Assembly (NCBI GenBank): GCA_012031975.1
Contig: JAAUSA010000059.1
Location: 1 to 23,926 of the forward strand
Origin: Alkalinema sp. RU_4_3
GTDB lineage: Bacteria > Cyanobacteriota > Cyanobacteriia > Leptolyngbyales > Leptolyngbyaceae
DNA: 23,926 bases
Direction: 5' to 3'
The notes beneath the pieces were generated by a model. It had not been told where the DNA came from and did no database searches. It saw only the letters and a list, made by a program, of their open reading frames with translations. A program made the translations under genes and the position numbers. Positions 2,801 through 14,503 of this stretch are shown piece after piece (within the stretch, counting starts at the first letter, position 1; each line of letters begins with the position of its first letter).

Positions 2801-3480
2801 TAGGTGTATTGGATTAACCTAACACTTATATTTCAGATGATAGATGATCTCGATCGAGAGTTCCCAAAAATCATAAATTATTTTGATTTTCTTCCGATTA
2901 CGCCCCAACTTGCATAACTTGCCCGAGTATGAGTTTGTGTTAGGCTGACTCCAGAAACACATCTGGACTTGCATAGGAGGTTGGGTCGCCATGGCACTTT
3001 CTCAGGGATTGATCCCCGATCGCTTGCGCACCCTACATTGGGTTGTGGTCTGGTGCAGCCCTATGCGAGACCTGCAATTTATGTTGCGTTTGCTGGAATA
3101 TTGGCCCATTCGCTGGCAGTGGTAGGCGAGTGGATCCTATATGCCAAACAGCCGTCCCCCCAAGTCCCCCTCACAAAAGTGTGATCTGAAAGTGTGATCT
3201 GTAAGACAGTGCTCGTGGGGTGGTGGAGCGTGGGTTTTCAATAGATCTGACCAATTAATCTACGCGCATTGGGGGCGATCGTACCCTTCAGGAAATTTGA
3301 TGTGGTGCGAGTTGAGGGGCTAGAAATGTAGCAGCTTGTAGAAGAGCGCGCTTAGGAGGACAGTTATATTACTCCCAAACCGAGAAGAGATCAGTCTCCC
3401 GCATCAGCTTTTCCTGGAGTTCTCGCAGTTGAGTCAGGTCCATAGAAAGCGACAAAATGAAGGGGACAACTATCTTAACC

Positions 3481-3915
3481 CTGTCAACTTTATTAGGCAT
3501 CCGTGTCTTCAATGATACCAATTAAAATGGTTAACAGTAATTCCAAATTAGACGGAATAGCGTAGGTATTGGTATCTTTATAGAGCTTTCGATCGGTGCG
3601 ATCGAAATACCCAAATTTCCAAATATCACCCGTGGTAACCGCACCATAGATTCTTGAAGCAGATGAGTTAGTCCATTGGTCCAGGGCAATTAACTCAGTG
3701 CCAAGCTGGACAAACCCGCGCGAAATATCGGCTTACTTAGCTTCAATCACCAGTAGCTGGTATTCACTGGGAATAAAATAATCTAAATTACCCCGCAGCC
3801 AATTACTCACATTGACAGCATATTCGATTTTGATTTTCTGATTAGTTTGACTACAGACTTCAAACAGGATCGGAGCAATCAGCATTTCTCGGCGGGCAAG
3901 AGTAAACGATCTCAA
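3481..3915 (-). pseudogene. N-terminally truncated and frameshifted copy of the HsdR-N-like PD-(D/E)xK gene family; it is a paralogue of the intact gene at 18732..19337
   Basis: ORF 3733..3915 (MRSF..ARREMLIAPILFEVCSQ...YQLLVIEAK) aligns to ARSELIISPVLVEVRRQ...VVLIEAK of the 18732 gene. Reading on past the stop at 3733 in another frame gives ADISRGFVQLGTELIALDQW...RIYGAVTTGDIWKFGYFDRTDRKLYKDTNTYAIPSNLELLLTIL, which matches the C-terminal half of the intact gene (VIYGCVSSGILWRFLKLEGTVVTIDLTDYAITPVDRILGYL). About 65 N-terminal residues are missing and there is a frame break at roughly 3733. Confidence 0.55.
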
Positions 3916-3957: not shown

Positions 3958-5262
3958 TTACCGTTTCATAGGGATCCGCCACCGTCTGCCCCACCCCCAG
4001 ATCGCCGCCAACACTAGCCACCCCATCACATTCACCCGCGCATCAAACAGCGTCACATCAAACAAACTAAACACCGTACAGGCCATAAACGTCAGCACAT
4101 AGATAAACATCGTGAACCGATCGCGCCCCTCAGCCTTACGGAGCCAAACCACCCCCCGATAGACAATCCAGCCAATCAAACTATAGAAAATCAAGGTCGC
4201 TGGTACCCCCATCTCCGCCGACAGCATCAACGGCAAATTATGGGGATGACCAATATAAAACTGCGTCGCATCCTTGTACAACGGCGTAAAATTGCGCAAC
4301 CCCCAACCCGTCAAAGGCCGCTGGCAGACCAGATCCCAGGCAAACTTCCACTGGTTCACTCGCAGCGATGCCGGAGGACGATTGAGAAATAAATCATCAT
4401 TAATTCTGGCCCAAATCATGCGCGGCACGATCGTCCTCAACCCCTCCTGCACAGGCGACGCAGGCCCATAGGCAGAACCCACCACCGCCGCCACCACCAC
4501 TAGCGTAATCCAGGCAATAAACCGCCAGCCAATATAAACCGAATAGGCCACGACCACCGCCAAAGCAATCCCCCAGGCATTCCGGGAGTTGGTTAAAAAC
4601 AAGGCTACGGCATTGAGTAGAACGATCGCCCCTAATCCCACCTTGCGAATCCAACGGTGCTTCTCCCGCCAGGCATCAATCCATAACCCCAACCCGATCG
4701 TAAACGTCATCGTCAAATAGCTCGCCAAAATCGTCGCATAGTAAAAGAGCGACGACATCCGGCCCGCAGGTCTCCCAAACCGCACCAGCGCCCAATCCAG
4801 CAGAATCCCATCGGAATCCCCAAAATTCAGCACCTGCCAATGGAACCGCCAGCGCAAAAACAACTGCCCCAGCCCCATAATCGCCACAGGCACCATCGGC
4901 AACAGCAGCAGCCAAGCCAGCCGTCGCATCTGCTGCTGCGTCCGAATCAACCGCGCCTGCGCCACAAACACCACAAAAAACGGCAGAAAATTAAACAGCC
5001 CCGGCAACGAATAATCCCGCCGCTGGGCAAACAGCGCAATAATCACCATCCAGCTCCCCAGCAGCAGCAACCCCTGATTCACAAAGGTCTGCACCATCAC
5101 ATTCGCCCGCCGCCGCCAGACCATCAGCGAGCAGACCAAGATCGTCACCCCCCCCAGCAGAATATTCAACGGCATCCCCAGCACCGCCACCTGCATCACA
5201 TTCCACAGACGGCGGAGCGCAGGATCGGGATGGGATTGCAGCCGTAGCCAAGAAGATTGCAT
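3958..5262 (-). CDS. O-antigen ligase / O-antigen polymerase family (Wzy_C-type) polytopic membrane protein
   Basis: 434-aa ORF with many predicted TM helices. It carries FLTNSRNAWGIALAV and HPHNLPLMLSAEMG, which resemble the Wzy_C SR..W and HxHN motifs. Confidence 0.65.
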   Translation of the reverse strand: MQSSWLRLQSHPDPALRRLWNVMQVAVLGMPLNILLGGVTILVCSLMVWRRRANVMVQTFVNQGLLLLGSWMVIIALFAQRRDYSLPGLFNFLPFFVVFVAQARLIRTQQQMRRLAWLLLLPMVPVAIMGLGQLFLRWRFHWQVLNFGDSDGILLDWALVRFGRPAGRMSSLFYYATILASYLTMTFTIGLGLWIDAWREKHRWIRKVGLGAIVLLNAVALFLTNSRNAWGIALAVVVAYSVYIGWRFIAWITLVVVAAVVGSAYGPASPVQEGLRTIVPRMIWARINDDLFLNRPPASLRVNQWKFAWDLVCQRPLTGWGLRNFTPLYKDATQFYIGHPHNLPLMLSAEMGVPATLIFYSLIGWIVYRGVVWLRKAEGRDRFTMFIYVLTFMACTVFSLFDVTLFDARVNVMGWLVLAAIWGWGRRWRIPMKR

Positions 5263-5351
5263 GGGATCAAGGGATCTAAGGACTCCAGAGCTGCCATTCT
5301 ACGCCTAAACCACCTCACTTGCTTCCACCATCACCATCTTCCACTGCCGCG

Positions 5352-6164
5352 TCAGCCGAATCTGGGCCAGCACAAACACCACGGGCACCACCCTTGCATA
5401 GTTACTATCAATACTCCGCCAGCCCAGATCCGCAAAAACCAAGCCCACATCGCCGGACCCACCCAAGCGAGCACCGATCGCGTCGCCCCATACCGCGCCG
5501 CCGTCGCCGCCATCCCATGCTGGGCCATCTTCAGCGACACCTGCGATCGCAAATGCGTCCCCAGGGCCAACCCTCCCTGGGCCAAGGTCTGCTTCGCCAC
5601 CTCATGGCGCGCATAGTGCAGGGCAAACTGCCGAGCAATCAACTGCAAAATCAGGGGCCTAACCACAGCATTGACGGCGATCGCACTGCCCCCCTTGAGG
5701 AGCAAACCCATCGGATCCCGCTGCAAGGCCACGGGGAGTTTACGCGTCAAGTCATGGTGGGAGATGCTGCGCTGGACGCGATCGCTCAGGGACTGCTGTT
5801 CCTTGGGAGGAAGTTTCTTCCAGGCGCGCTGGAGCAGATGGAGGAAAATCTCAGACTCGATCTCTTCAGTGCCCATGGCCACTTCGTAGGGGACGCGCAG
5901 GTGGCGGCAGATGCGGAGCAAAATATCGCGGTAGGGCATAGTTTCGCCCCGGCCTTGGAGAACGGTCATCCCATCGGCGGCCAGATAGCGGAAGCGATCT
6001 TCTAGGGCATCGAGCCGATCGTAGTACTTCAGACTTTGGACATCGAGCGGGTCCAACCCATTGAGATAATCCAAGGGATTGAACTTCGGGCGGAACAGAA
6101 TCTCCGTCAGCTCCTGCAATTCCTCATCCGTGGCCAGCTCTAAAGCATCCCGCAGCTCATCCAC
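5352..6164 (-). CDS. Conserved hypothetical protein, YaaW-like (ATDEEL...YRDILL..CRHL pattern) with a hydrophobic C-terminus
   Basis: 270-aa ORF. The N-terminal MDELRDALELATDEELQELTEILF...YRDILLRICRHLRVPY resembles the YaaW/DUF3944 family from memory. This has not been verified. Confidence 0.4.
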   Translation of the reverse strand: MDELRDALELATDEELQELTEILFRPKFNPLDYLNGLDPLDVQSLKYYDRLDALEDRFRYLAADGMTVLQGRGETMPYRDILLRICRHLRVPYEVAMGTEEIESEIFLHLLQRAWKKLPPKEQQSLSDRVQRSISHHDLTRKLPVALQRDPMGLLLKGGSAIAVNAVVRPLILQLIARQFALHYARHEVAKQTLAQGGLALGTHLRSQVSLKMAQHGMAATAARYGATRSVLAWVGPAMWAWFLRIWAGGVLIVTMQGWCPWCLCWPRFG

Positions 6165-6229
6165 AATCCCATTGCCTCACAAATCATGCGCAAATCCGAT
6201 CGTATTCTAGCGAACCTGGGTTCTTCTCG

Positions 6230-7234
6230 ATGGGTGCGAAAACCGATCGCCCCCCATATCGGATAATCAAACCACCACTACCGACCTGTACCATGCTAGA
6301 TGTTGCCATTGTCGGAGCCGGAATCGCTGGCCTGACCGCCGCTCGATCGCTCACCGACCAAGGCCAGCAGGTTGCCCTGATTGAAAAATCACGGGGGCTG
6401 GGCGGTCGTTTGGCTACCCGCAGACTGCCGGGCACCCATGCCGATCACGGTGTTTGCTATTTAAAACCGAAAGGTAAAGTTTTCCAACGATTGATTGAGG
6501 AAGCGATCGCCGCTGGCGTTTTGATCCCCTGGCAACCGAACACCTACGCCTCTCCCCTCGGTATCACGGCCTTTGCCAAATGGTTGGCCCAGGGTTTGAC
6601 CCTCCACACAGGCGAACGGGCGATTGCGCTTTCCCACAATACCCACTGGAGCATCACCACCGACAGCGGCCTCGAAATCTCTGCGAAAAAACTCCTCCTG
6701 GCAATTCCGGCTCCCCAGGCGATCGATCTGCTCAAAACCTGGCCCGATACGTCCACCGAAGTTTTAACCCAACTCCAAAGCGTTACATTTAATCCTTGCA
6801 TCACAGCGATCGCCACCTATGCCCCGCAAGATCCCATTCCTTGGCAGGGCTTACCCATAATCAACGATCCCAATCTCACCTGGATCGCCCTAGAAAGTAG
6901 TAAGCAGATTTCGCCGTCCCACCCAGTTTTGGTGTTTCACAGCACTGCCGCCTTTGCGAAACAGCAGTTTGAAGCTGACGATCTCACGCCCGTCGGACAG
7001 ATGCTCCTCGCCAGCGCTGCCCAAGTGACCAACCTCCCCTGGCTGAGCGATCCCACTCTCCTGCAAATCCACCGCTGGCGCTACGCCTTCCCCACCGCGC
7101 CGCTCAATACCCCATACCTCCAAGCAGGTTCAAACCTCTACCTTTGCGGAGACTGGTGTCTGGGCGATCGCGTGGAAGCGGCCCACCGGTCGGGACTGGC
7201 TGTGGCTGTGGCGATAGACCAATCATCAGTCTAG
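6230..7234 (+). CDS. NAD(P)/FAD-dependent oxidoreductase (renalase/amine-oxidase-like). The true start is probably the ATG at about 6292 (MLDVAIVGAGIAGL).
   Basis: Rossmann dinucleotide-binding motif VAIVGAGIAGLTAARSL...IEKSRGLGGR at the N-terminus; 334-aa ORF. Confidence 0.65.
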   Translation: MGAKTDRPPYRIIKPPLPTCTMLDVAIVGAGIAGLTAARSLTDQGQQVALIEKSRGLGGRLATRRLPGTHADHGVCYLKPKGKVFQRLIEEAIAAGVLIPWQPNTYASPLGITAFAKWLAQGLTLHTGERAIALSHNTHWSITTDSGLEISAKKLLLAIPAPQAIDLLKTWPDTSTEVLTQLQSVTFNPCITAIATYAPQDPIPWQGLPIINDPNLTWIALESSKQISPSHPVLVFHSTAAFAKQQFEADDLTPVGQMLLASAAQVTNLPWLSDPTLLQIHRWRYAFPTAPLNTPYLQAGSNLYLCGDWCLGDRVEAAHRSGLAVAVAIDQSSV

Positions 7235-7605
7235 GTCAACAGTCCGATCTGAACTTGGCCATCAGTAATCCGACTTGGATAGGTCGCGATCGCCACCCCA
7301 GCATCATCTAGACATTCTCCAGTCTGAAGATTAAAGTTCTGCTTATAAATCGGCGAGGCCACCTTGGGGATGCCGTTGCGATCGCCCACAATGCCCCGTG
7401 ACAGAACGTAGGCTTTACTAAAGGGATCGTAATTGTCGATCGCATACAATTCGGAAACCCCTTCTAAACCACCAGCTTGCCAGTGGAAGACAGCCACCTG
7501 CTGCCCCGAAACCATGGCACAGACGCCTGTATTCGGGGGAATGCGATCGAGGCGACAGACGGTCACCCATTCAGTGATGTTTTGTTGGGTCGTGGTTGGA
7601 AGCAT
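7231..7605 (-). CDS. nirD: Nitrite reductase [NAD(P)H] small subunit NirD (Rieske-like)
   Basis: 124 aa. VCRLDRIPPNTGVCAMVSGQQVAVFH and the C-terminal ...TYPSRITDGQVQIG are typical of NirD. It lies directly downstream of the nirB pieces. Confidence 0.85.
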   Translation of the reverse strand: MLPTTTQQNITEWVTVCRLDRIPPNTGVCAMVSGQQVAVFHWQAGGLEGVSELYAIDNYDPFSKAYVLSRGIVGDRNGIPKVASPIYKQNFNLQTGECLDDAGVAIATYPSRITDGQVQIGLLT

Positions 7606-7640
7606 GGTTTGGGCTCGGGTAGGTTGGATGATTGCAGAAA

Positions 7641-9098
7641 TTAGAGATTGCGGATGCCGACAAGGACTTCGCGTTCATGGTCGTAGGGCGGACGGGCTTG
7701 GCCCCGCTCCTCGACGCGCATCAGGCTCGGATCGGGCTCCTCCGAATTGACGAAATGGCTGAATCGTTGGAGTTTTTTCGGGTCCTGCAAGGTGGCTTTC
7801 CACTCGCATTCGTAGGTGGCTACCTGATGATTCATTTCGGCTTCTAATTGGGCGGCGATCCCAAGGGAGTCGTTAATTACCACCTGCTTGAGATAGTCCA
7901 TGCCCCCTTCTAATTTGTTCAGCCAGGTTGCCGTGCGTTCCAAACGGTTTGCGGTACGGATGTAGAACATCAGAAAGCGATCGATATATTTAATCAGCAT
8001 TTCCTCATCCAAATCCGCAGCCAAGAGCTGGGCATGCTGGGGTCGCATACCGCCATTGCCGCAGACGTAAAGGTTCCAGCCGTTTTCCGTGGCGATAATC
8101 CCAAAGTCCTTACTCTGGGCCTCAGCACATTCGCGCGTACAGCCCGACACCGCCGACTTCAACTTGTGAGGTGCTCGCAAACCGCGATAGCGCTGTTCCA
8201 CCCGAATTGCCAAACCCGTTGAATCCTGAACACCAAACCGACACCAAGTGCTGCCAACACAGGATTTCACCGTCCTTAGTGCTTTACCGTAGGCATGGCC
8301 CGATTCAAAACCAGACTCCACTAAACGCTGCCAGATTAAAGGCAACTGGTCTACCCTTGCGCCTAACAAATCGATCCGCTGGGCTCCGGTGATTTTGGTA
8401 TAGAGCCCGAAATCACGGGCTACCTCACCCAGTACAATCAATGCCTCCGGCGTAATCTCGCCCCCTGGAATACGGGGAATCACCGAATAGGTGCCATCCT
8501 TCTGGATATTGGCGAGGAAAGCATCGTTTGTATCCTGGAGGCTAGCGTGATTGAGAATGTAATCATTCCAGACCGAAGAGAGAATCGAGGCCACAGCGGG
8601 TTTACAGATTTCGCAGCCCTGGCCTTGACCATGACGCGAGAGCAGTTCCTCAAAGCTCTGAAGATTCTCCACCCGCACCAGTTGGTAGAGTTCCTGGCGG
8701 CTGAAGGCGAAGTGCTCACAGAGATTGTTTTTAACTTCTAGGCCCGCCTTCTTCATTTCCGCCTTGAGCAAATCCGTCACCAGCGGTACACAGCCACCGC
8801 AGCCTGTTCCGGCGTTTGTGCATTGCTTGACGCTACCGATATCGGTCAGATTGTCGGCTTGAATCCGGCTGCAAATTTCGCCTTTGGTGACATTGTTACA
8901 AGTACAAATCTGGGCGGTGTCCGGCAGACTGTCCACACCCATGGATAAGCCGCCGCCCTGGCGATCGGGCAAAATCAAGTCCTCAGGATTCGGGGGCAAC
9001 ACGATCGCATTCTGCATCAACTGCACCAAGTTACCGTAGCTGGAGGCATCGCCCACCAGAATGCCGCCGAGCAGTTGTTTCCCCGAGGCATCAATCAC
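7641..9098 (-). CDS. nirB: Nitrite reductase [NAD(P)H] large subunit NirB, C-terminal about 485 aa (BFD-like 2Fe-2S and sirohaem/4Fe-4S nitrite/sulfite reductase domains). It is separated from the N-terminal part by a frame break.
   Basis: LLGGILVGDASSYGNLVQL...PDTAQICTCNNVTKGEI...GTGCGGCVPLV...CVGSTWCRFG...SGCTRECAEAQ...VCGNGGMRP matches E. coli NirB residues about 360-847 nearly colinearly. Confidence 0.9.
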   Translation of the reverse strand: MIDASGKQLLGGILVGDASSYGNLVQLMQNAIVLPPNPEDLILPDRQGGGLSMGVDSLPDTAQICTCNNVTKGEICSRIQADNLTDIGSVKQCTNAGTGCGGCVPLVTDLLKAEMKKAGLEVKNNLCEHFAFSRQELYQLVRVENLQSFEELLSRHGQGQGCEICKPAVASILSSVWNDYILNHASLQDTNDAFLANIQKDGTYSVIPRIPGGEITPEALIVLGEVARDFGLYTKITGAQRIDLLGARVDQLPLIWQRLVESGFESGHAYGKALRTVKSCVGSTWCRFGVQDSTGLAIRVEQRYRGLRAPHKLKSAVSGCTRECAEAQSKDFGIIATENGWNLYVCGNGGMRPQHAQLLAADLDEEMLIKYIDRFLMFYIRTANRLERTATWLNKLEGGMDYLKQVVINDSLGIAAQLEAEMNHQVATYECEWKATLQDPKKLQRFSHFVNSEEPDPSLMRVEERGQARPPYDHEREVLVGIRNL

Positions 9099-10177
9099 CA
9101 GTTTTTTATAGGTGCCCTTGAGTGCGTCGCGATCGCCACTTCCCTGGCTCCCTCTGTCTTGGCAAACCCATCCCCAAAGCTGGCTACATCCACACCCATC
9201 AGTTTGAGCTTCGTAGACATGTCGGCGCCGGTGAAGCTGTTGCTCTGGGGCTGACAGATGTTGTCGGCAGCGATCGCGGCCATCGTGTAACCCGGTGCCA
9301 CCAGGCCGTAAATCCGACCATCATGGAGGGCACATTCGCCGATCGCGTAGATATCGGGGTCCGAGGTTTGGCAAAATTCGTTAATGACAATGCCGCCGCG
9401 ATCGCCCACGCTGAGGTCACAGCTCTTGGCCAATTCATCACGGGGCCGTATCCCAGCGGAAAAGACAATCATGTCGGTTTGCAATTCCGTGCCATCGGCA
9501 AACTGCATTTTGTGGACTTTACCGTTTTCGCTGACGATCGCCGTGGTGGATTTACTCGTATGGACCGTGACATCCAATTCCTGAATCTTATCCTTAAGAA
9601 TCAAGCCCCCGGCCCCATCCACCTGCACAGGCATCAGACGGGGCGCAAACTCCACCACATGGGTTTTTAATCCCATATTCTTCAGCGCATTGGCACATTC
9701 AAGACCGAGTAAACCACCACCCACAACCACGCCCACCTTGCACTGCTTTGCGTAGGCCGACATGGCTTCGAGATCTTCAATAGTGCGATAGACAAAGGTG
9801 CCTTCGACATCTTTCCCTGGAATCGGTGGCACGAAAGGGAAGGAACCCGTGGCTAGGACCAGTTTGTCGTAGGCGATCGTCACACCATTATCAGAAGTGA
9901 TGGTTTTTGCGGCGCGATCGATATGATTTGCTTTATCGCCAATATGAATATTAATATTATTTTCCTGATAAAACCCCGGCTGCACCAACGTCAGGTCCGC
10001 CGCCGTTTTGCCGCTGAAAAACCCGCTGAGATTGACGCGATCGTAGGCTACACGCGGTTCCTCGCAAAAGGTCGTCAGGCTCCATTCTTGACCGTCATCC
10101 TTGGCCAGCATCCGCTCCAAGAACTTATGTCCAACCATGCCGTTACCGATCACGACTAAATTCTTCTTTGTGGCCAT
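9095..10177 (-). CDS. nirB: NirB N-terminal about 360 aa (FAD/NAD(P)-binding pyridine nucleotide-disulfide oxidoreductase domain). It ends in an out-of-frame tail THSRAPIKNW before the stop at 9095.
   Basis: MATKKNLVVIGNGMVGHKFLERML...FCEEPRVAYDRVNLS...ATGSFPFVPPIPG...VVGGGLLGLECA...YAIGECA is the NirB N-terminus. Together the two ORFs total about 845 aa, the normal NirB length. Confidence 0.9.
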   Translation of the reverse strand: MATKKNLVVIGNGMVGHKFLERMLAKDDGQEWSLTTFCEEPRVAYDRVNLSGFFSGKTAADLTLVQPGFYQENNINIHIGDKANHIDRAAKTITSDNGVTIAYDKLVLATGSFPFVPPIPGKDVEGTFVYRTIEDLEAMSAYAKQCKVGVVVGGGLLGLECANALKNMGLKTHVVEFAPRLMPVQVDGAGGLILKDKIQELDVTVHTSKSTTAIVSENGKVHKMQFADGTELQTDMIVFSAGIRPRDELAKSCDLSVGDRGGIVINEFCQTSDPDIYAIGECALHDGRIYGLVAPGYTMAAIAADNICQPQSNSFTGADMSTKLKLMGVDVASFGDGFAKTEGAREVAIATHSRAPIKNW

Positions 10178-10246
10178 TAGAACCTGTTTGAAGTAGTGAG
10201 AGTGCTAAAGATTGTACAAGTGTGGGTCCATCCGTCAATCAATTTG

Positions 10247-10260
10247 GTATTCCTCAATAC
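10247..10260. promoter_or_regulatory. Candidate NtcA-binding site (GTA-N8-TAC: GTATTCCTCAATAC) in the divergent nirB / flotillin intergenic region. A TACAAT -10-like hexamer lies on the nirB strand at about 10211-10216.
   Basis: The consensus GTAN8TAC is seen directly. Spacing to the putative -10 box is about 32 nt, longer than the canonical roughly 22 nt, so the call is weak. Confidence 0.3.
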
Positions 10261-10503
10261 AAAATGCCCTAGCCTATGGGCAAAGAGCATCGATCCCATG
10301 GGTGAAGAGAATGGGAGGTGGGCGATCGCCCAGAATATTACGTTTTGCATTTAAATGTAAACTTTCTAAGCGTCATACCCTGGCGATAGGTTCAGCGCGA
10401 CTTCCTTGAAACGTCTGCTGCCGTTCTGCTTGATTTTTACTGTTACACAGATGTTAAGAAAATCGCCGTCTCTAAATCTCGGTGTTAGCTTAAATCTATT
10501 CTA

Positions 10504-12408
10504 TTGCCCTACATGGGTGAGCTTAATACACTAGATATGGAAACCGCTTCATTCTTTTCCATCTTGCCTGCTGCCTCGCTTCAAAAGCAGACCAAGATTG
10601 TCCGACGTTGTAATCAATTTTTGGCAGCTTTAGTCGCTTCTACGGCCCTCTCCCTCGCGCCCCCAGCCAAGGCCCAGCCGCCCATACTACCAGCGGCTCC
10701 GCCCCCAATAGCAGGGGTCAAAACACCGATCGCCATGATTCCCGTTGACCTGGTTGTCGTACCTGTGGCGATCGCTGGTGTGATTCTCCTCGGCCTGACC
10801 TGCGGCGGTCTCGTGGTGATCGGCGAACGCGAAGTTGGGATTGTGGTGAAGAAGGTCTCCTTTGCTGGACGCCGCCTGCCACCGGGACGACTGATCGCCC
10901 TCGAAGGTGAAGCGGGCTACCAGGCCGACACCCTCGCTCCTGGCTGGCATTGGGGCTATTGGCCCTGGCAGTTTGGAGTACGTAAGGAATCTGTGCTGGT
11001 GATTCCCCAGGGCGAAGTGGCCTTGATCGTGGCCAATGATGGCACCTCGATTCCCCTGGAGCGGATTTTGGGGCAGGTGGTGCCCTGCGACAATTTCCAG
11101 GATGCCCGCAAATTCCTAGCAAACGGCGGCGAAAAGGGCCGTCAGCTAGGCTTTCTCACCGCCGGAACCTACCGGATCAACACCGCCCAATTCAAAGTGA
11201 TCACGGCTAGCAACGCTGACCAACATGGCATGCGGCCCGAGCAGCTCAACGTCTACTCCGTCACCTCCGACAAAGTCGGCATCGTCTCCACCCTCGACGG
11301 GATGCCGATCGAATCCGGGGAAATCGCCGGAGCCGTCGTGCCCGACCATGACAATTTCCAAAACGGCCAGAAATTCATCCAGCAAAACGGACGCCGGGGT
11401 TTGCAGCAGCAGATCCTGCTGTCGGGGTCCTGGAACCTCAACCCCTGGTTTGTGCAGGTGGAGCAAGTGCCGATGACCGAAATTCCGATCGGCTACGTCG
11501 GCGTCGTGGTTTCCTTCGTGGGGGATGCGCCGGATGATGTGAGTGGGGCGGGCTTTACCCATGGCAACCTGGTGCTGGTCGGCCACAAGGGCGTTTGGGT
11601 CACGCCGCTTTACCCTGGCAAACATCCAATCAACACCCGCGTCATGAAGGTGGAATTGGTCCCGACCATTAATATTGTGCTGAACTGGGCCAATCGCACC
11701 GAACGTCACCACTACGATGCCAACCTAGCGGCCTTGACCGTGCGCTCCAAGGACGGCTTTGCCTTTGCCCTAGAGGTCTCCCAAATCATCCATGTCGGAG
11801 CCCTCGACGCCCCCAAGGTGATCTCCCGCGTCGGCTCCATGCAAAACCTCGTAGACAACGTCCTCGAACCCAGCATCGGCAACTATTTCCGCAACTCGGC
11901 CCAGGATTACACGGTGCTCGACTTCCTAAATGCGAGAAGCGATCGCCAGTCTGAAGCCGCCGAATACATCAAAACTGCCCTACGGATCTACGACGTCCAG
12001 GCGATCGACACCCTAATCGGCGGCATCCAGCCCCCCGCCGAACTGATGCAGACCCAGACCGAACGGAAGCTCGCCGAGGAAAAGCGCAAAACCTACGAAG
12101 TCCAACAAATGGCCCAAACCCAACGCCAGCAGCTCGTACGAGAAACAGCCCTGGCGGATATTCAGCAGGAACTGGTCCAGTCCGAGCAGAGCGTCAATAT
12201 CGCCGAACTCAAGGCCAATGCCCAGATTAAACAGGCCACCGGGGAAGCAGAATCCACCCGTCTCAAAGCCTCCGGGGATGCCGAAGCGATCCGCGCCACC
12301 GGGAACGCCAAGGCTGAAACCTACCAGGCCGGGGTGAATGCCCTGGGTGGCCAGAGCTATACGGCCATGCAGTTGATGCAGATTATTGGCGATCGCACGT
12401 CCGGCTGA
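10504..12408 (+). CDS. Large flotillin-family / SPFH (band-7) domain protein with a C-terminal E/A/Q-rich coiled coil. The real start is possibly the internal ATG near 10724 (MIPVDLVVVPVAIAGVILLG, a TM helix). The C-terminus appears to continue in another frame.
   Basis: The TM segment followed by GEREVGIVVKKVSFAGRRLPPGRLIALEGEAGYQADTLAPG...CDNFQDARKFLANGGEKGRQLGFLTAGTYRINT is the pattern of the roughly 650-aa cyanobacterial flotillin family. The C-terminal ...AEAIRATGNAKAETYQAGVNALGGQSYTAMQLMQIIGDR is typical of flotillins. Confidence 0.7.
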   Translation: MPYMGELNTLDMETASFFSILPAASLQKQTKIVRRCNQFLAALVASTALSLAPPAKAQPPILPAAPPPIAGVKTPIAMIPVDLVVVPVAIAGVILLGLTCGGLVVIGEREVGIVVKKVSFAGRRLPPGRLIALEGEAGYQADTLAPGWHWGYWPWQFGVRKESVLVIPQGEVALIVANDGTSIPLERILGQVVPCDNFQDARKFLANGGEKGRQLGFLTAGTYRINTAQFKVITASNADQHGMRPEQLNVYSVTSDKVGIVSTLDGMPIESGEIAGAVVPDHDNFQNGQKFIQQNGRRGLQQQILLSGSWNLNPWFVQVEQVPMTEIPIGYVGVVVSFVGDAPDDVSGAGFTHGNLVLVGHKGVWVTPLYPGKHPINTRVMKVELVPTINIVLNWANRTERHHYDANLAALTVRSKDGFAFALEVSQIIHVGALDAPKVISRVGSMQNLVDNVLEPSIGNYFRNSAQDYTVLDFLNARSDRQSEAAEYIKTALRIYDVQAIDTLIGGIQPPAELMQTQTERKLAEEKRKTYEVQQMAQTQRQQLVRETALADIQQELVQSEQSVNIAELKANAQIKQATGEAESTRLKASGDAEAIRATGNAKAETYQAGVNALGGQSYTAMQLMQIIGDRTSG

Positions 12409-12422
12409 TCCCGGATGTCCTC

Positions 12423-12689
12423 GTGGGAGCCAACGGCAATGGCAATGGTCTGGTCGATGGACTGCTGTCGATGATTCTCTGGAACCAAACTGAAGGCAAG
12501 CCACCAATCCTTGGGACCAAACGCCCTGAGGAAACAGAGGCGGAACTCGCCCCGATCAGCCAGGAAATTCTGGACCAGGGCGATCGCCTGACGGCTAGCA
12601 AACTCAACCCCTACAGGCACCGATGCAAGGACCCCCGAGAATTCTGTATAATGCCAGCAATATTGAAGCGCCGATCTAAAGTTTATTGA
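12423..12689 (+). CDS. Probable displaced C-terminal segment of the flotillin gene (GANGNGNGLVDGLLSMIL... tail), reached by a frame change at about 12395-12415
   Basis: Reading the +2 frame across the stop at 12406 gives ...RSHVRLIPDVLVGANGNGNGLVDGLLSMILWNQTEG, which resembles the conserved flotillin C-terminal glycine-rich tail. Confidence 0.45.
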   Translation: MGANGNGNGLVDGLLSMILWNQTEGKPPILGTKRPEETEAELAPISQEILDQGDRLTASKLNPYRHRCKDPREFCIMPAILKRRSKVY

Positions 12690-12723: not shown

Positions 12724-13368
12724 ATGTTGATAGAATCTCCTCCAAAACCGATCGGTGAAAAGCGCCTCACTTTCCATAACCTGACTTGGCCTGCCTTCAA
12801 GCAGATTCATAGTCTGCTGGCCGCCAATACCCGCGCCCGCTTCACCTATGATCATGGCACGCTTGAAATCACCATGCCCCTGGAAATCCACGAACGATCG
12901 GCCCGCTTAATTGAACGTTTTATCCTAATTCTTGTGATGGAAATGGGCTTGAAACTTAAAACCATGGGTTCTACGACCCTCGATCGCGAAGATCTCCTCA
13001 AAAGCGCTGAGCCCGATAACGGCTACTACATTCAAAATTATGCCCAGGTGGCTGACCATGAAATCGATCTCGATATTGATCCGGCTCCCGATCTAATTGT
13101 TGAAGTAGATATCACCCACACCGATTTGAACAAAGATAGTCTCTATGCTTCCATGGGCGTGATGGAGTTTTGGCGATTTGACGGTAAAAACTGGCGGATT
13201 CTCCAGCTCCAGGATGGTGAATATGTGGAGGGCGATCGATCGCCCACGTTTGCTCTTGTCTCTAAATCCGATCTCTATGAATTCCTGAAAATTGCGTTTC
13301 GCGACGAAATTGCTGCTGAAATGGACTTCCGACAGCTCATTCGTCAGCGATTGCAAGCATTAAATTAG
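12724..13368 (+). CDS. Uma2-family (DUF820) putative restriction-endonuclease-like protein
   Basis: 214 aa. TLEITMPLEIHERSARLIERF...PDLIVEVDITHTD...EFWRFDGKNWRILQL matches the abundant cyanobacterial Uma2 family. Confidence 0.85.
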   Translation: MLIESPPKPIGEKRLTFHNLTWPAFKQIHSLLAANTRARFTYDHGTLEITMPLEIHERSARLIERFILILVMEMGLKLKTMGSTTLDREDLLKSAEPDNGYYIQNYAQVADHEIDLDIDPAPDLIVEVDITHTDLNKDSLYASMGVMEFWRFDGKNWRILQLQDGEYVEGDRSPTFALVSKSDLYEFLKIAFRDEIAAEMDFRQLIRQRLQALN

Positions 13369-13771: not shown

Positions 13772-14503
13772 CTACTCCATATCAAACAACACCGTCGTCA
13801 TATACCGATCGGCCCACTCCCGCCCAAACGCCTTCTCCAACACCCGACGCGTCTTATCATTCTCCTGCTGCCGATCGCAATAGTAGCGCTGGCCCGCCAG
13901 AATCTCCGATCGCCGCTCAGGCGTCGCCACCGTAGCCACCGCCTGCCGACAATGCAACTCCAAATACTCAACGACGCGATCGACAAACACCGCCCCCTCC
14001 CCATCATCACTCGGATGAATAAACAGGCAAAACGGCGAAAAAATATCCGCCCACCCCGGAAACTGCCGCTCCTGGGAAAACCGCAGCGCATCCATCGACC
14101 CCAACTGCTCCTGGTAATCAGGCGGCAACAGCCCATCCCCCGCCACCGGCGACAAATCCGTGATCGCCATGCTCAGACGCCCCCGCCCCCCCACAATATC
14201 CGCCCCAAACATCGGCAACGCATAATCGCTCCGGGGAAACATCACACAATGCAGAATATCCAACGCCTCCCCCACCTTCGCCAACTCCATATGCAGCTTC
14301 CGGAACTGCGGCGTCTGGAAGCAATGATTCTCAATCACAATCCGCTCCCCCTCCATCTTGCCCTCCACATAGCCCAAATCCGACGGCAAATAGTAGGGCT
14401 CCAGATCCAAATGCTCCCGCCAGACCGCCTCAATCCGATCGGCCAACTGCCGAATCAAAGGGTGCTGCCGTTGGCGAATCGAGTGAGTAGGACTAGAAAT
14501 CAT
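13772..14503 (-). CDS. pcyA: Phycocyanobilin:ferredoxin oxidoreductase
   Basis: HPLIRQLADRIEAVWREHLDLEPYYLPSDLGYVEGKMEGERIVIENHCFQTPQFRKLHMELAKVG..LDILHCVMFP...NDKTRRVLEKAFG.EWADRYMTTVLFD is near-colinear with Synechocystis PcyA as I recall it. Confidence 0.95.
   Translation of the reverse strand: MISSPTHSIRQRQHPLIRQLADRIEAVWREHLDLEPYYLPSDLGYVEGKMEGERIVIENHCFQTPQFRKLHMELAKVGEALDILHCVMFPRSDYALPMFGADIVGGRGRLSMAITDLSPVAGDGLLPPDYQEQLGSMDALRFSQERQFPGWADIFSPFCLFIHPSDDGEGAVFVDRVVEYLELHCRQAVATVATPERRSEILAGQRYYCDRQQENDKTRRVLEKAFGREWADRYMTTVLFDME

Follow-up and report, generated by a model that had tools for sequence, protein, structure and literature searches.

A single-base frame break in nirB of Alkalinema sp. 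RU_4_3 is most likely an Ion Torrent consensus error adjoining a HIP1 site

We analyzed the full length (23,926 nucleotides; hereafter, the window) of contig JAAUSA010000059.1 from Alkalinema sp. RU_4_3 (assembly GCA_012031975.1), in which nirB, the gene upstream of nirD in a nitrite reductase operon, is split between two open reading frames (ORFs) by the absence of one base. We consider it highly probable that this frame break is an error in the assembly consensus, introduced by low-coverage Ion Torrent data; i.e., the base is most likely lacking in the reads, not in the organism. An error is the most likely explanation because the reads are of that kind, two sibling contractions occur in the window, and both halves of nirB are under purifying selection. 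On this explanation, one C of the CC closing the palindrome GGCGATCGCC (Ala348, GCC) would have been undercalled in the reads, and the true nirB would be a continuous ORF of 845 codons.

The original prediction was that the two ORFs are halves of one full-length NirB separated by a single missing or extra base next to a HIP1 site, with nirD still intact downstream, and all of these points were borne out. When compared to NF011565 (the NCBIfam model of NirB, 847 positions), the N-terminal fragment matched positions 3-346 and the C-terminal fragment matched positions 351-840, so that the two are colinear and do not overlap. Alone, the fragments scored 482 and 783 bits, respectively, each below the cutoff of 883. 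Restoring one C produced an 845-residue NirB that scored 1280.3 bits on the same model in a single stretch (3-840 of 847), and 1126 bits on TIGR02374 (cutoff 578). The deposited sequence lacks this uninterrupted frame, being one base short at 9128/9129. There, the 360-residue N-terminal fragment ends in ...GAREVAIATHSRAPIKNW before its stop codon, and the -1 frame is already open well before the junction; upstream of the GTG at 9098 it stays open as far as ...SGDRDALKGTYKKLVIDASG, and it runs through ...SGDRDALKGTYKKLVIDASGK... to the stop at 7641. Pfam domains in the N-terminal part were Pyr_redox_2 (6-287) and Pyr_redox (150-228), and those in the C-terminal part of the repaired protein were Fer2_BFD (424-472), NIR_SIR_ferr (559-621) and NIR_SIR (631-767). 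Rubredoxin_C (321-390) is bisected by the break; it was detected in neither fragment alone and was regained in the repaired protein. The translation also contains two GxGxxG motifs for FAD and NAD(P)H binding (VIGNGMVG and VVGGGLLG) and the cysteine ligand motifs C-x-C ... C-x2-C (ICTCNN...GTGCGGC) and C-x5-C ... C-x3-C (SCVGSTWC...SGCTREC). A sequence search of the PDB yielded homologues of the N-terminal flavoprotein domain alone and no full-length NirB structure. The nirB-nirD locus is an ordinary operon for a siroheme-containing, NAD(P)H-dependent nitrite reductase, with activity (nitrite to ammonium in the cytoplasm) and cofactor preference predicted from sequence.

Since the Ala348 codon ends and the Asp349 codon begins on one and the same G (9128), exactly one base is missing. 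It belongs to the third position of the alanine codon and is most likely one C of a CC dinucleotide, not part of a long homopolymer. Comparison with sister sequences agreed with this placement. The four nearest DNA relatives (87-88% nucleotide and 95-96% protein identity) read GTGGCGATCGC[C/T]GA[T/C]GCA at the site, with C in three and T in one, whereas the window reads GTGGCGATCGC-GACGCA. Over a longer span, three of these relatives read GTGGCGATCGCCGA[T/C]GCA and one reads GTGGCGATCGCTGACGCA; the deletion-bearing and base-restored forms of the window junction are GGCGATCGCGAC and GGCGATCGCCGAC, respectively. Its loss shortens a 10-bp extended HIP1 palindrome, GGCGATCGCC, by the terminal C to GGCGATCGC, and the HIP1 octamer itself directly adjoins the missing base. 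HIP1 occurs 22 times in the window versus 0.47 copies expected, an abundance that fits a cyanobacterial origin. At the protein level, homologues P0001, P0003, P0005 and P0009 read REVAIADALKGTY at the junction, identical to the repair and aligned without gaps. The alignment was likewise gapless through the site for each of the 11 full-length sequences in the nearest 90% cluster (95-96% amino acid identity; a twelfth member is a 461-residue C-terminal fragment that ends short of the site) and for all 44 closest homologues inspected. Overall, the repaired protein aligned without gaps to more than 100 full-length NirB sequences, mostly cyanobacterial where a source was named.

RU_4_3 is a bin obtained by Waterworth et al. 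from South African peritidal stromatolites, "RU" denoting the upper site at Cape Recife sampled in April (bioRxiv 10.1101/818625). Their Table S3 assigns it to the genus Alkalinema and lists 5.25 Mb in 818 contigs, with an N50 of 8259 and a coverage of 3.82; sequencing was done on an IonTorrent Ion P1 chip and assembly with SPAdes 3.12 (--iontorrent --only-assembler; 10.1101/818625). In Ion Torrent data, deletions dominate in homopolymers of at least 2 bases, 6-mers are called with ~68% accuracy, and each 1-2 kb of reference carries about one high-frequency indel error (Bragg et al., 2013; PMC3623719). Strand-asymmetric indels are mostly in 2-3-mers, with C/G deletions dominant, and indel errors lead to frameshifts in assemblies (PMC3623719). 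The RU_4_3 data combine an Ion P1 platform, a low bin coverage of 3.82, and recurrent single-base contractions in one assembly (from CC to C at both 9128/9129 and 12396/12397, and from T6 to T5 at 5434-5438). The three lesions resemble the published errors in kind, and their frequency is of the same order of magnitude. Under the --only-assembler option, SPAdes bypasses its read-correction stage. Because of this, IonHammer correction was probably not applied, contrary to the source text. That text credits --iontorrent with IonHammer homopolymer correction, yet also states --only-assembler (10.1101/818625). If correction was skipped, all 183 bins of that study may be frameshift-rich.

The two sibling contractions were found by translating the genes of syntenic relatives against the window. 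In a conserved hypothetical gene of 286 residues, three relatives read TGGTTTTTTGC where the window reads TGGTTTTTGC, a contraction of T6 to T5 (A5 on the plus strand), and the relatives' residues 1-244 and 244-286 match two different frames of the window. The SPFH gene stops in the window at ...IIGDRTSG, and the break falls between IIGDR and HVRLIPDV; its relatives run on through ...IIGDRHVRLIPDVLVG...LSMILWNQT, a sequence that the window encodes in another frame. Here, the DNA of the relatives reads TTGGCGATCGCCACG and that of the window TTGGCGATCGC-ACG (in short form, GGCGATCGCCACG versus GGCGATCGC-ACG). The SPFH and nirB lesions therefore share a context, both having lost the terminal C of GGCGATCGCC by contraction of CC to C. 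In total, three frameshifts occur in ~12.6 kb of assessable coding sequence, and all are single-base homopolymer contractions. Both C/G dinucleotide deletions fell on the 11 HIP1-terminal dinucleotides among ~1206 CC/GG dinucleotides (P ~8e-5 under a uniform distribution), and two intact copies of GGCGATCGCC are left in the window (10321-10330 and 12579-12588). The genes for the O-antigen ligase, FAD oxidoreductase, NirD, PcyA, Ser/Thr kinase, IspH/LytB and DUF6816 protein, as well as a 110-residue ORF, were intact relative to close relatives. Pfam scans of the remaining window ORFs found no more split domains, and no frameshift relative to L087 was found in the 13.5-18.4 kb region. The window's O-antigen ligase, NirD and PcyA are identical to RU_4_3 proteins NJM46624.1, NJM46626.1 and NJM46628.1, respectively, and this numbering is consistent with the absence of protein records for nirB, the 286-residue gene and the SPFH gene, which would then have been annotated as pseudogenes.

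We also counted codon changes in the window lineage, using positions at which the window departs from a codon shared by four intact relatives. There were 52 synonymous to 5 nonsynonymous changes in nirB, including 27:2 downstream of the break, and the same count gave 44:2, 21:1, 43:8 and 21:0 for the four intact relatives. Since the 52:5 pattern resembles that of intact relatives, nirB shows no sign of decay, and both halves are under purifying selection. The relaxed selection or extra lesions of a decaying pseudogene were thus not seen in these ratios (52:5 and 27:2), and the frame break is the single lesion in nirB. Conservation also extends to the promoter, the NtcA-like box and nirD.

Several observations weigh against a consensus error. 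A CC dinucleotide is a weaker context for Ion Torrent error than a long homopolymer, and the occurrence of two of the three frameshifts in the same palindromic motif could point to a real mutational hotspot. Additionally, our searches turned up no second, independent assembly of this strain that spans the junction. Exact look-ups of the 360- and 485-residue fragments and of the repaired 845-residue protein returned no match, a junction-centered query of 144 residues returned only short, distant fragments (<=69% identity), and an N-terminal query of 576 residues returned only known relatives (<=95%). The one Logan contig of this strain (L001, SRR11470445) matches the window at 100% identity over 6237-8510 and ends at 8510, before the junction. 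The original prediction had left the choice between a recent pseudogene and a homopolymer sequencing error. The data type, the sibling lesions and the selection pattern strongly favor the latter. A true 1-nucleotide deletion in the sampled Alkalinema population, which would leave a fresh pseudogene, a truncated 360-residue flavoprotein and an orphaned nirD, is in our judgment unlikely. The deletion does stand in the deposited consensus, and loss of nirB with retention of nirD does occur in cyanobacteria, as in Phormidesmis priestleyi BC1401 and related metagenome-assembled genomes (MAGs; PMC8941735). However, nirB has no second lesion and no nonsynonymous excess (52:5), and a real frameshift would have to be extremely recent since there is no decay and the upstream region is conserved. 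Moreover, two more single-base contractions lie in unrelated conserved genes of the same 24-kb contig, which at face value would make ~15% of its genes fresh pseudogenes, and Ion Torrent data are known to yield exactly such errors. It is very unlikely that the losses at the ends of GGCGATCGCC in nirB (9128/9129) and the SPFH gene (12396/12397) are real and that HIP1 ends are indel hotspots, which would turn off genes such as nirB, and perhaps turn them on again, in a manner resembling phase variation. If they were, the A_AAA_AAC heptamer nearby could rescue nirB at a low level.

That heptamer has the X_XXY_YYZ form of a slippery site for programmed -1 frameshifting, and a -1 slip on it, in frame as it is, restores the C-terminal frame. 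The slip product would be a full-length NirB with 8 residues substituted (349-356, THSRAPIK for DALKGTYK). The TGA of the N-terminal fragment also shares bases with the first GTG in the C-frame ORF (GTGA, 9098..9095), where termination-reinitiation would give two polypeptides. Nonetheless, we regard it as extremely unlikely that a real frameshift is rescued in either way. The 86 nucleotides downstream fold at -24 kcal/mol, but with z = +0.48, 130 of 200 shuffled sequences were at least as stable. The A-run consists of conserved Lys-Lys codons that intact relatives share, Rubredoxin_C (321-390) would be severed by a split at residue 348, and nirB is a single ORF in every relative examined. Both the heptamer and the GTGA overlap derive from conserved Y-K-K-L-V codons, and we judged them to be coincidences. 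Conserved programmed recoding, by which nirB of the whole clade would normally be expressed via a frameshift, has the slippery heptamer alone in its favor and is refuted by intact relatives, and we assign it a vanishingly small probability. The 11 full-length members of the nearest cluster are uninterrupted, none of the four nearest DNA sequences lacks the base, and the best 120 homologues are uninterrupted at 837-870 residues, bar one 773-residue partial sequence. Programmed frameshifting was thus rejected for lack of downstream structure and because relatives do not share the two-frame arrangement, having a single 845-residue ORF. A functional split into two subunits was rejected since the break bisects Rubredoxin_C.

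Table 1. Coordinates of nirB, its frame break and other features of the window.
Feature	Position	Strand	Description
nirB N-terminal fragment	9095..10177	-	360 aa (ORF list); homologous residues 1-347, then 12 out-of-frame residues and TGA
nirB C-terminal part, -1 frame	7641..9128	-	Residues 349-845 of the repaired protein
Longest C-frame ORF with a start codon	7641..9098	-	GTG at 9098; 485 aa
Frame-break site	9128..9129	-	One C (plus strand G) absent, from the Ala348 codon GC[C]
HIP1 octamer GCGATCGC	9129..9136	.	Directly adjoins the missing base
A_AAA_AAC heptamer	9101..9107	-	In frame in the N-terminal fragment, one codon before TGA
nirD	7231..7605	-	Small Rieske-like subunit; 124 aa, intact; 35 nt past the nirB stop
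Sigma-70-like promoter TTGACG-16-TACAAT	10211..10238	-	34-61 nt upstream of the nirB ATG; kept in relatives
GTA-N8-TAC, candidate NtcA-like site	10247..10260	.	83 nt upstream of the nirB ATG
Second frameshift, conserved 286-aa hypothetical gene	6164..5308	-	Split at ~5435; lesion 5434-5438
Third frameshift, SPFH/Band_7 gene	10504..12408, on in another frame to ~12700	+	Lesion 12396/12397, within 12389-12398

The intact state of nirD (Table 1) was evident from an uninterrupted ORF that scored 108.3 bits on TIGR02378 (cutoff 74.65) and 8e-39 on Pfam Rieske_2; the protein is identical to NJM46626.1 and falls below the cutoff of NF007066, the E. coli-type equivalog (112.5 vs. 135). Upstream of nirB, the GTA and TAC of the candidate NtcA-like box are invariant across five relatives and the N8 between them is variable. 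The box, which fits the NtcA consensus, lies 8 nucleotides upstream of the promoter-like site and not at the canonical -41.5 position. Synteny was compared for window positions 3958-10177 and relatives L083, L085, L086 and L002. Downstream of nirB-nirD, the window and its nearest relatives share a convergent FAD amine-oxidase-like gene, the 286-residue gene and a Wzy_C O-antigen ligase gene; in two of the four relatives, two genes for peptidoglycan-binding-domain proteins are inserted after nirD. Gene content upstream of nirB varies from genome to genome, and no nitrate transporter or narB genes were found next to nirB-nirD in the window or its nearest relatives.

Farther along, ~246 bp present in three relatives (L083, 10231-10477) are absent at window position ~3899. 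This loss removes the start and the first ~72 codons of a conserved 208-residue gene, leaving residues 73-207 at 3900..3496, and synteny with the relatives stops near 3370. On the other side of nirB, a gene for a putative Uma2-family endonuclease (12724-13368) and pcyA (phycocyanobilin:ferredoxin oxidoreductase; 13772-14503) lie between the SPFH gene and a block of Ser/Thr kinase, ispH and DUF6816 genes. The block from pcyA to the DUF6816 gene is syntenic with L087 and intact relative to it.

A consensus error in nirB would have consequences for other genomes of this kind. The Ion Torrent MAGs of the source stromatolite study, and similar assemblies, probably carry about one frameshift per few kb. 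Pseudogene calls in such MAGs, including that of nirB, should not be taken as biology, and tables of gene presence may undercount. As a methodological point, the single-base losses of this assembly seem to cluster where HIP1 palindromes end. The more likely cause is an Ion Torrent error specific to the motif, and the less likely one is a real hotspot. Since two of the three frameshifts are at the end of GGCGATCGCC, a motif-specific error could affect every HIP1-rich cyanobacterial genome sequenced in this way.

The original prediction also considered a NirBD pair to be notable in a cyanobacterium, but this view was not sustained. Orthologues occur in many cyanobacterial groups, and the coexistence of nirA and nirBD has been published. 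The best 120 homologues of the repaired NirB were 76-95% identical, and all but the 773-residue partial sequence were 837-870 residues long. Named sources among them were Phormidesmis, Timaviella, Leptolyngbya, Phormidium, Coleofasciculus, Microcoleus, Trichocoleus and Symplocastrum, the sole non-cyanobacterial one being a Candidatus Sericytochromatia MAG. A scan of species-representative genomes found matches of 70-79% identity in Chamaesiphon, Dulcicalothrix PCC 7102, Microseira, Heteroscytonema, Waterburya, Oscillatoria, Cyanosarcina, Leptothoe and Pseudanabaenaceae, non-cyanobacterial matches at 58-67%, and no relative above 79%. Taken together, full-length NirB was found at 70-96% identity across cyanobacterial groups, including Leptolyngbyales. 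Cyanobacterial MAGs from cryoconite contain both nirA and nirBD, the latter encoding a second, NADH-using nitrite reductase beside NirA with a possible role in NAD+ regeneration under dark or anoxic conditions, and some cyanobacterial lineages retain nirD without nirB (Murakami et al., 2022; PMC8941735). In addition, nirBD genes were counted in the bins of the source study (10.1101/818625). To the question of nirBD physiology, the window makes one addition, namely, the conserved NtcA-like box upstream.

In comparison to the Ion Torrent errors described by Bragg et al., the nirB break is alike in being a single C/G deletion in a 2-mer, with a 6-mer contraction nearby, a frequency of about one per few kb and a frameshifted assembly; it differs in the tie to the extended HIP1 palindrome GGCGATCGCC (two of three events), which is not described there (PMC3623719). 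The repaired NirB is full length and 70-96% identical to the cyanobacterial NirB of Murakami et al. and to annotated proteins of Phormidesmis, Timaviella, Coleofasciculus, Microcoleus and Leptolyngbya, and nirBD in this bin is thus of an already described type, documented in many filamentous cyanobacteria. Relative to E. coli-type NirBD (NF011565/PRK14989 and TIGR02374, with NirD as TIGR02378), the domain order (FAD/NAD(P)H oxidoreductase, Rubredoxin_C, BFD-like [2Fe-2S], ferredoxin-like NIR_SIR half domain, siroheme/[4Fe-4S]) is identical, the repaired NirB matches in length (845 residues vs. 847 profile positions), and nirD is directly downstream. The RU_4_3 pair differs in that its deposited sequence is one base short and in its cyanobacterial context, where it stands alone, without adjacent nrt or narB genes and with a conserved NtcA-like box upstream.

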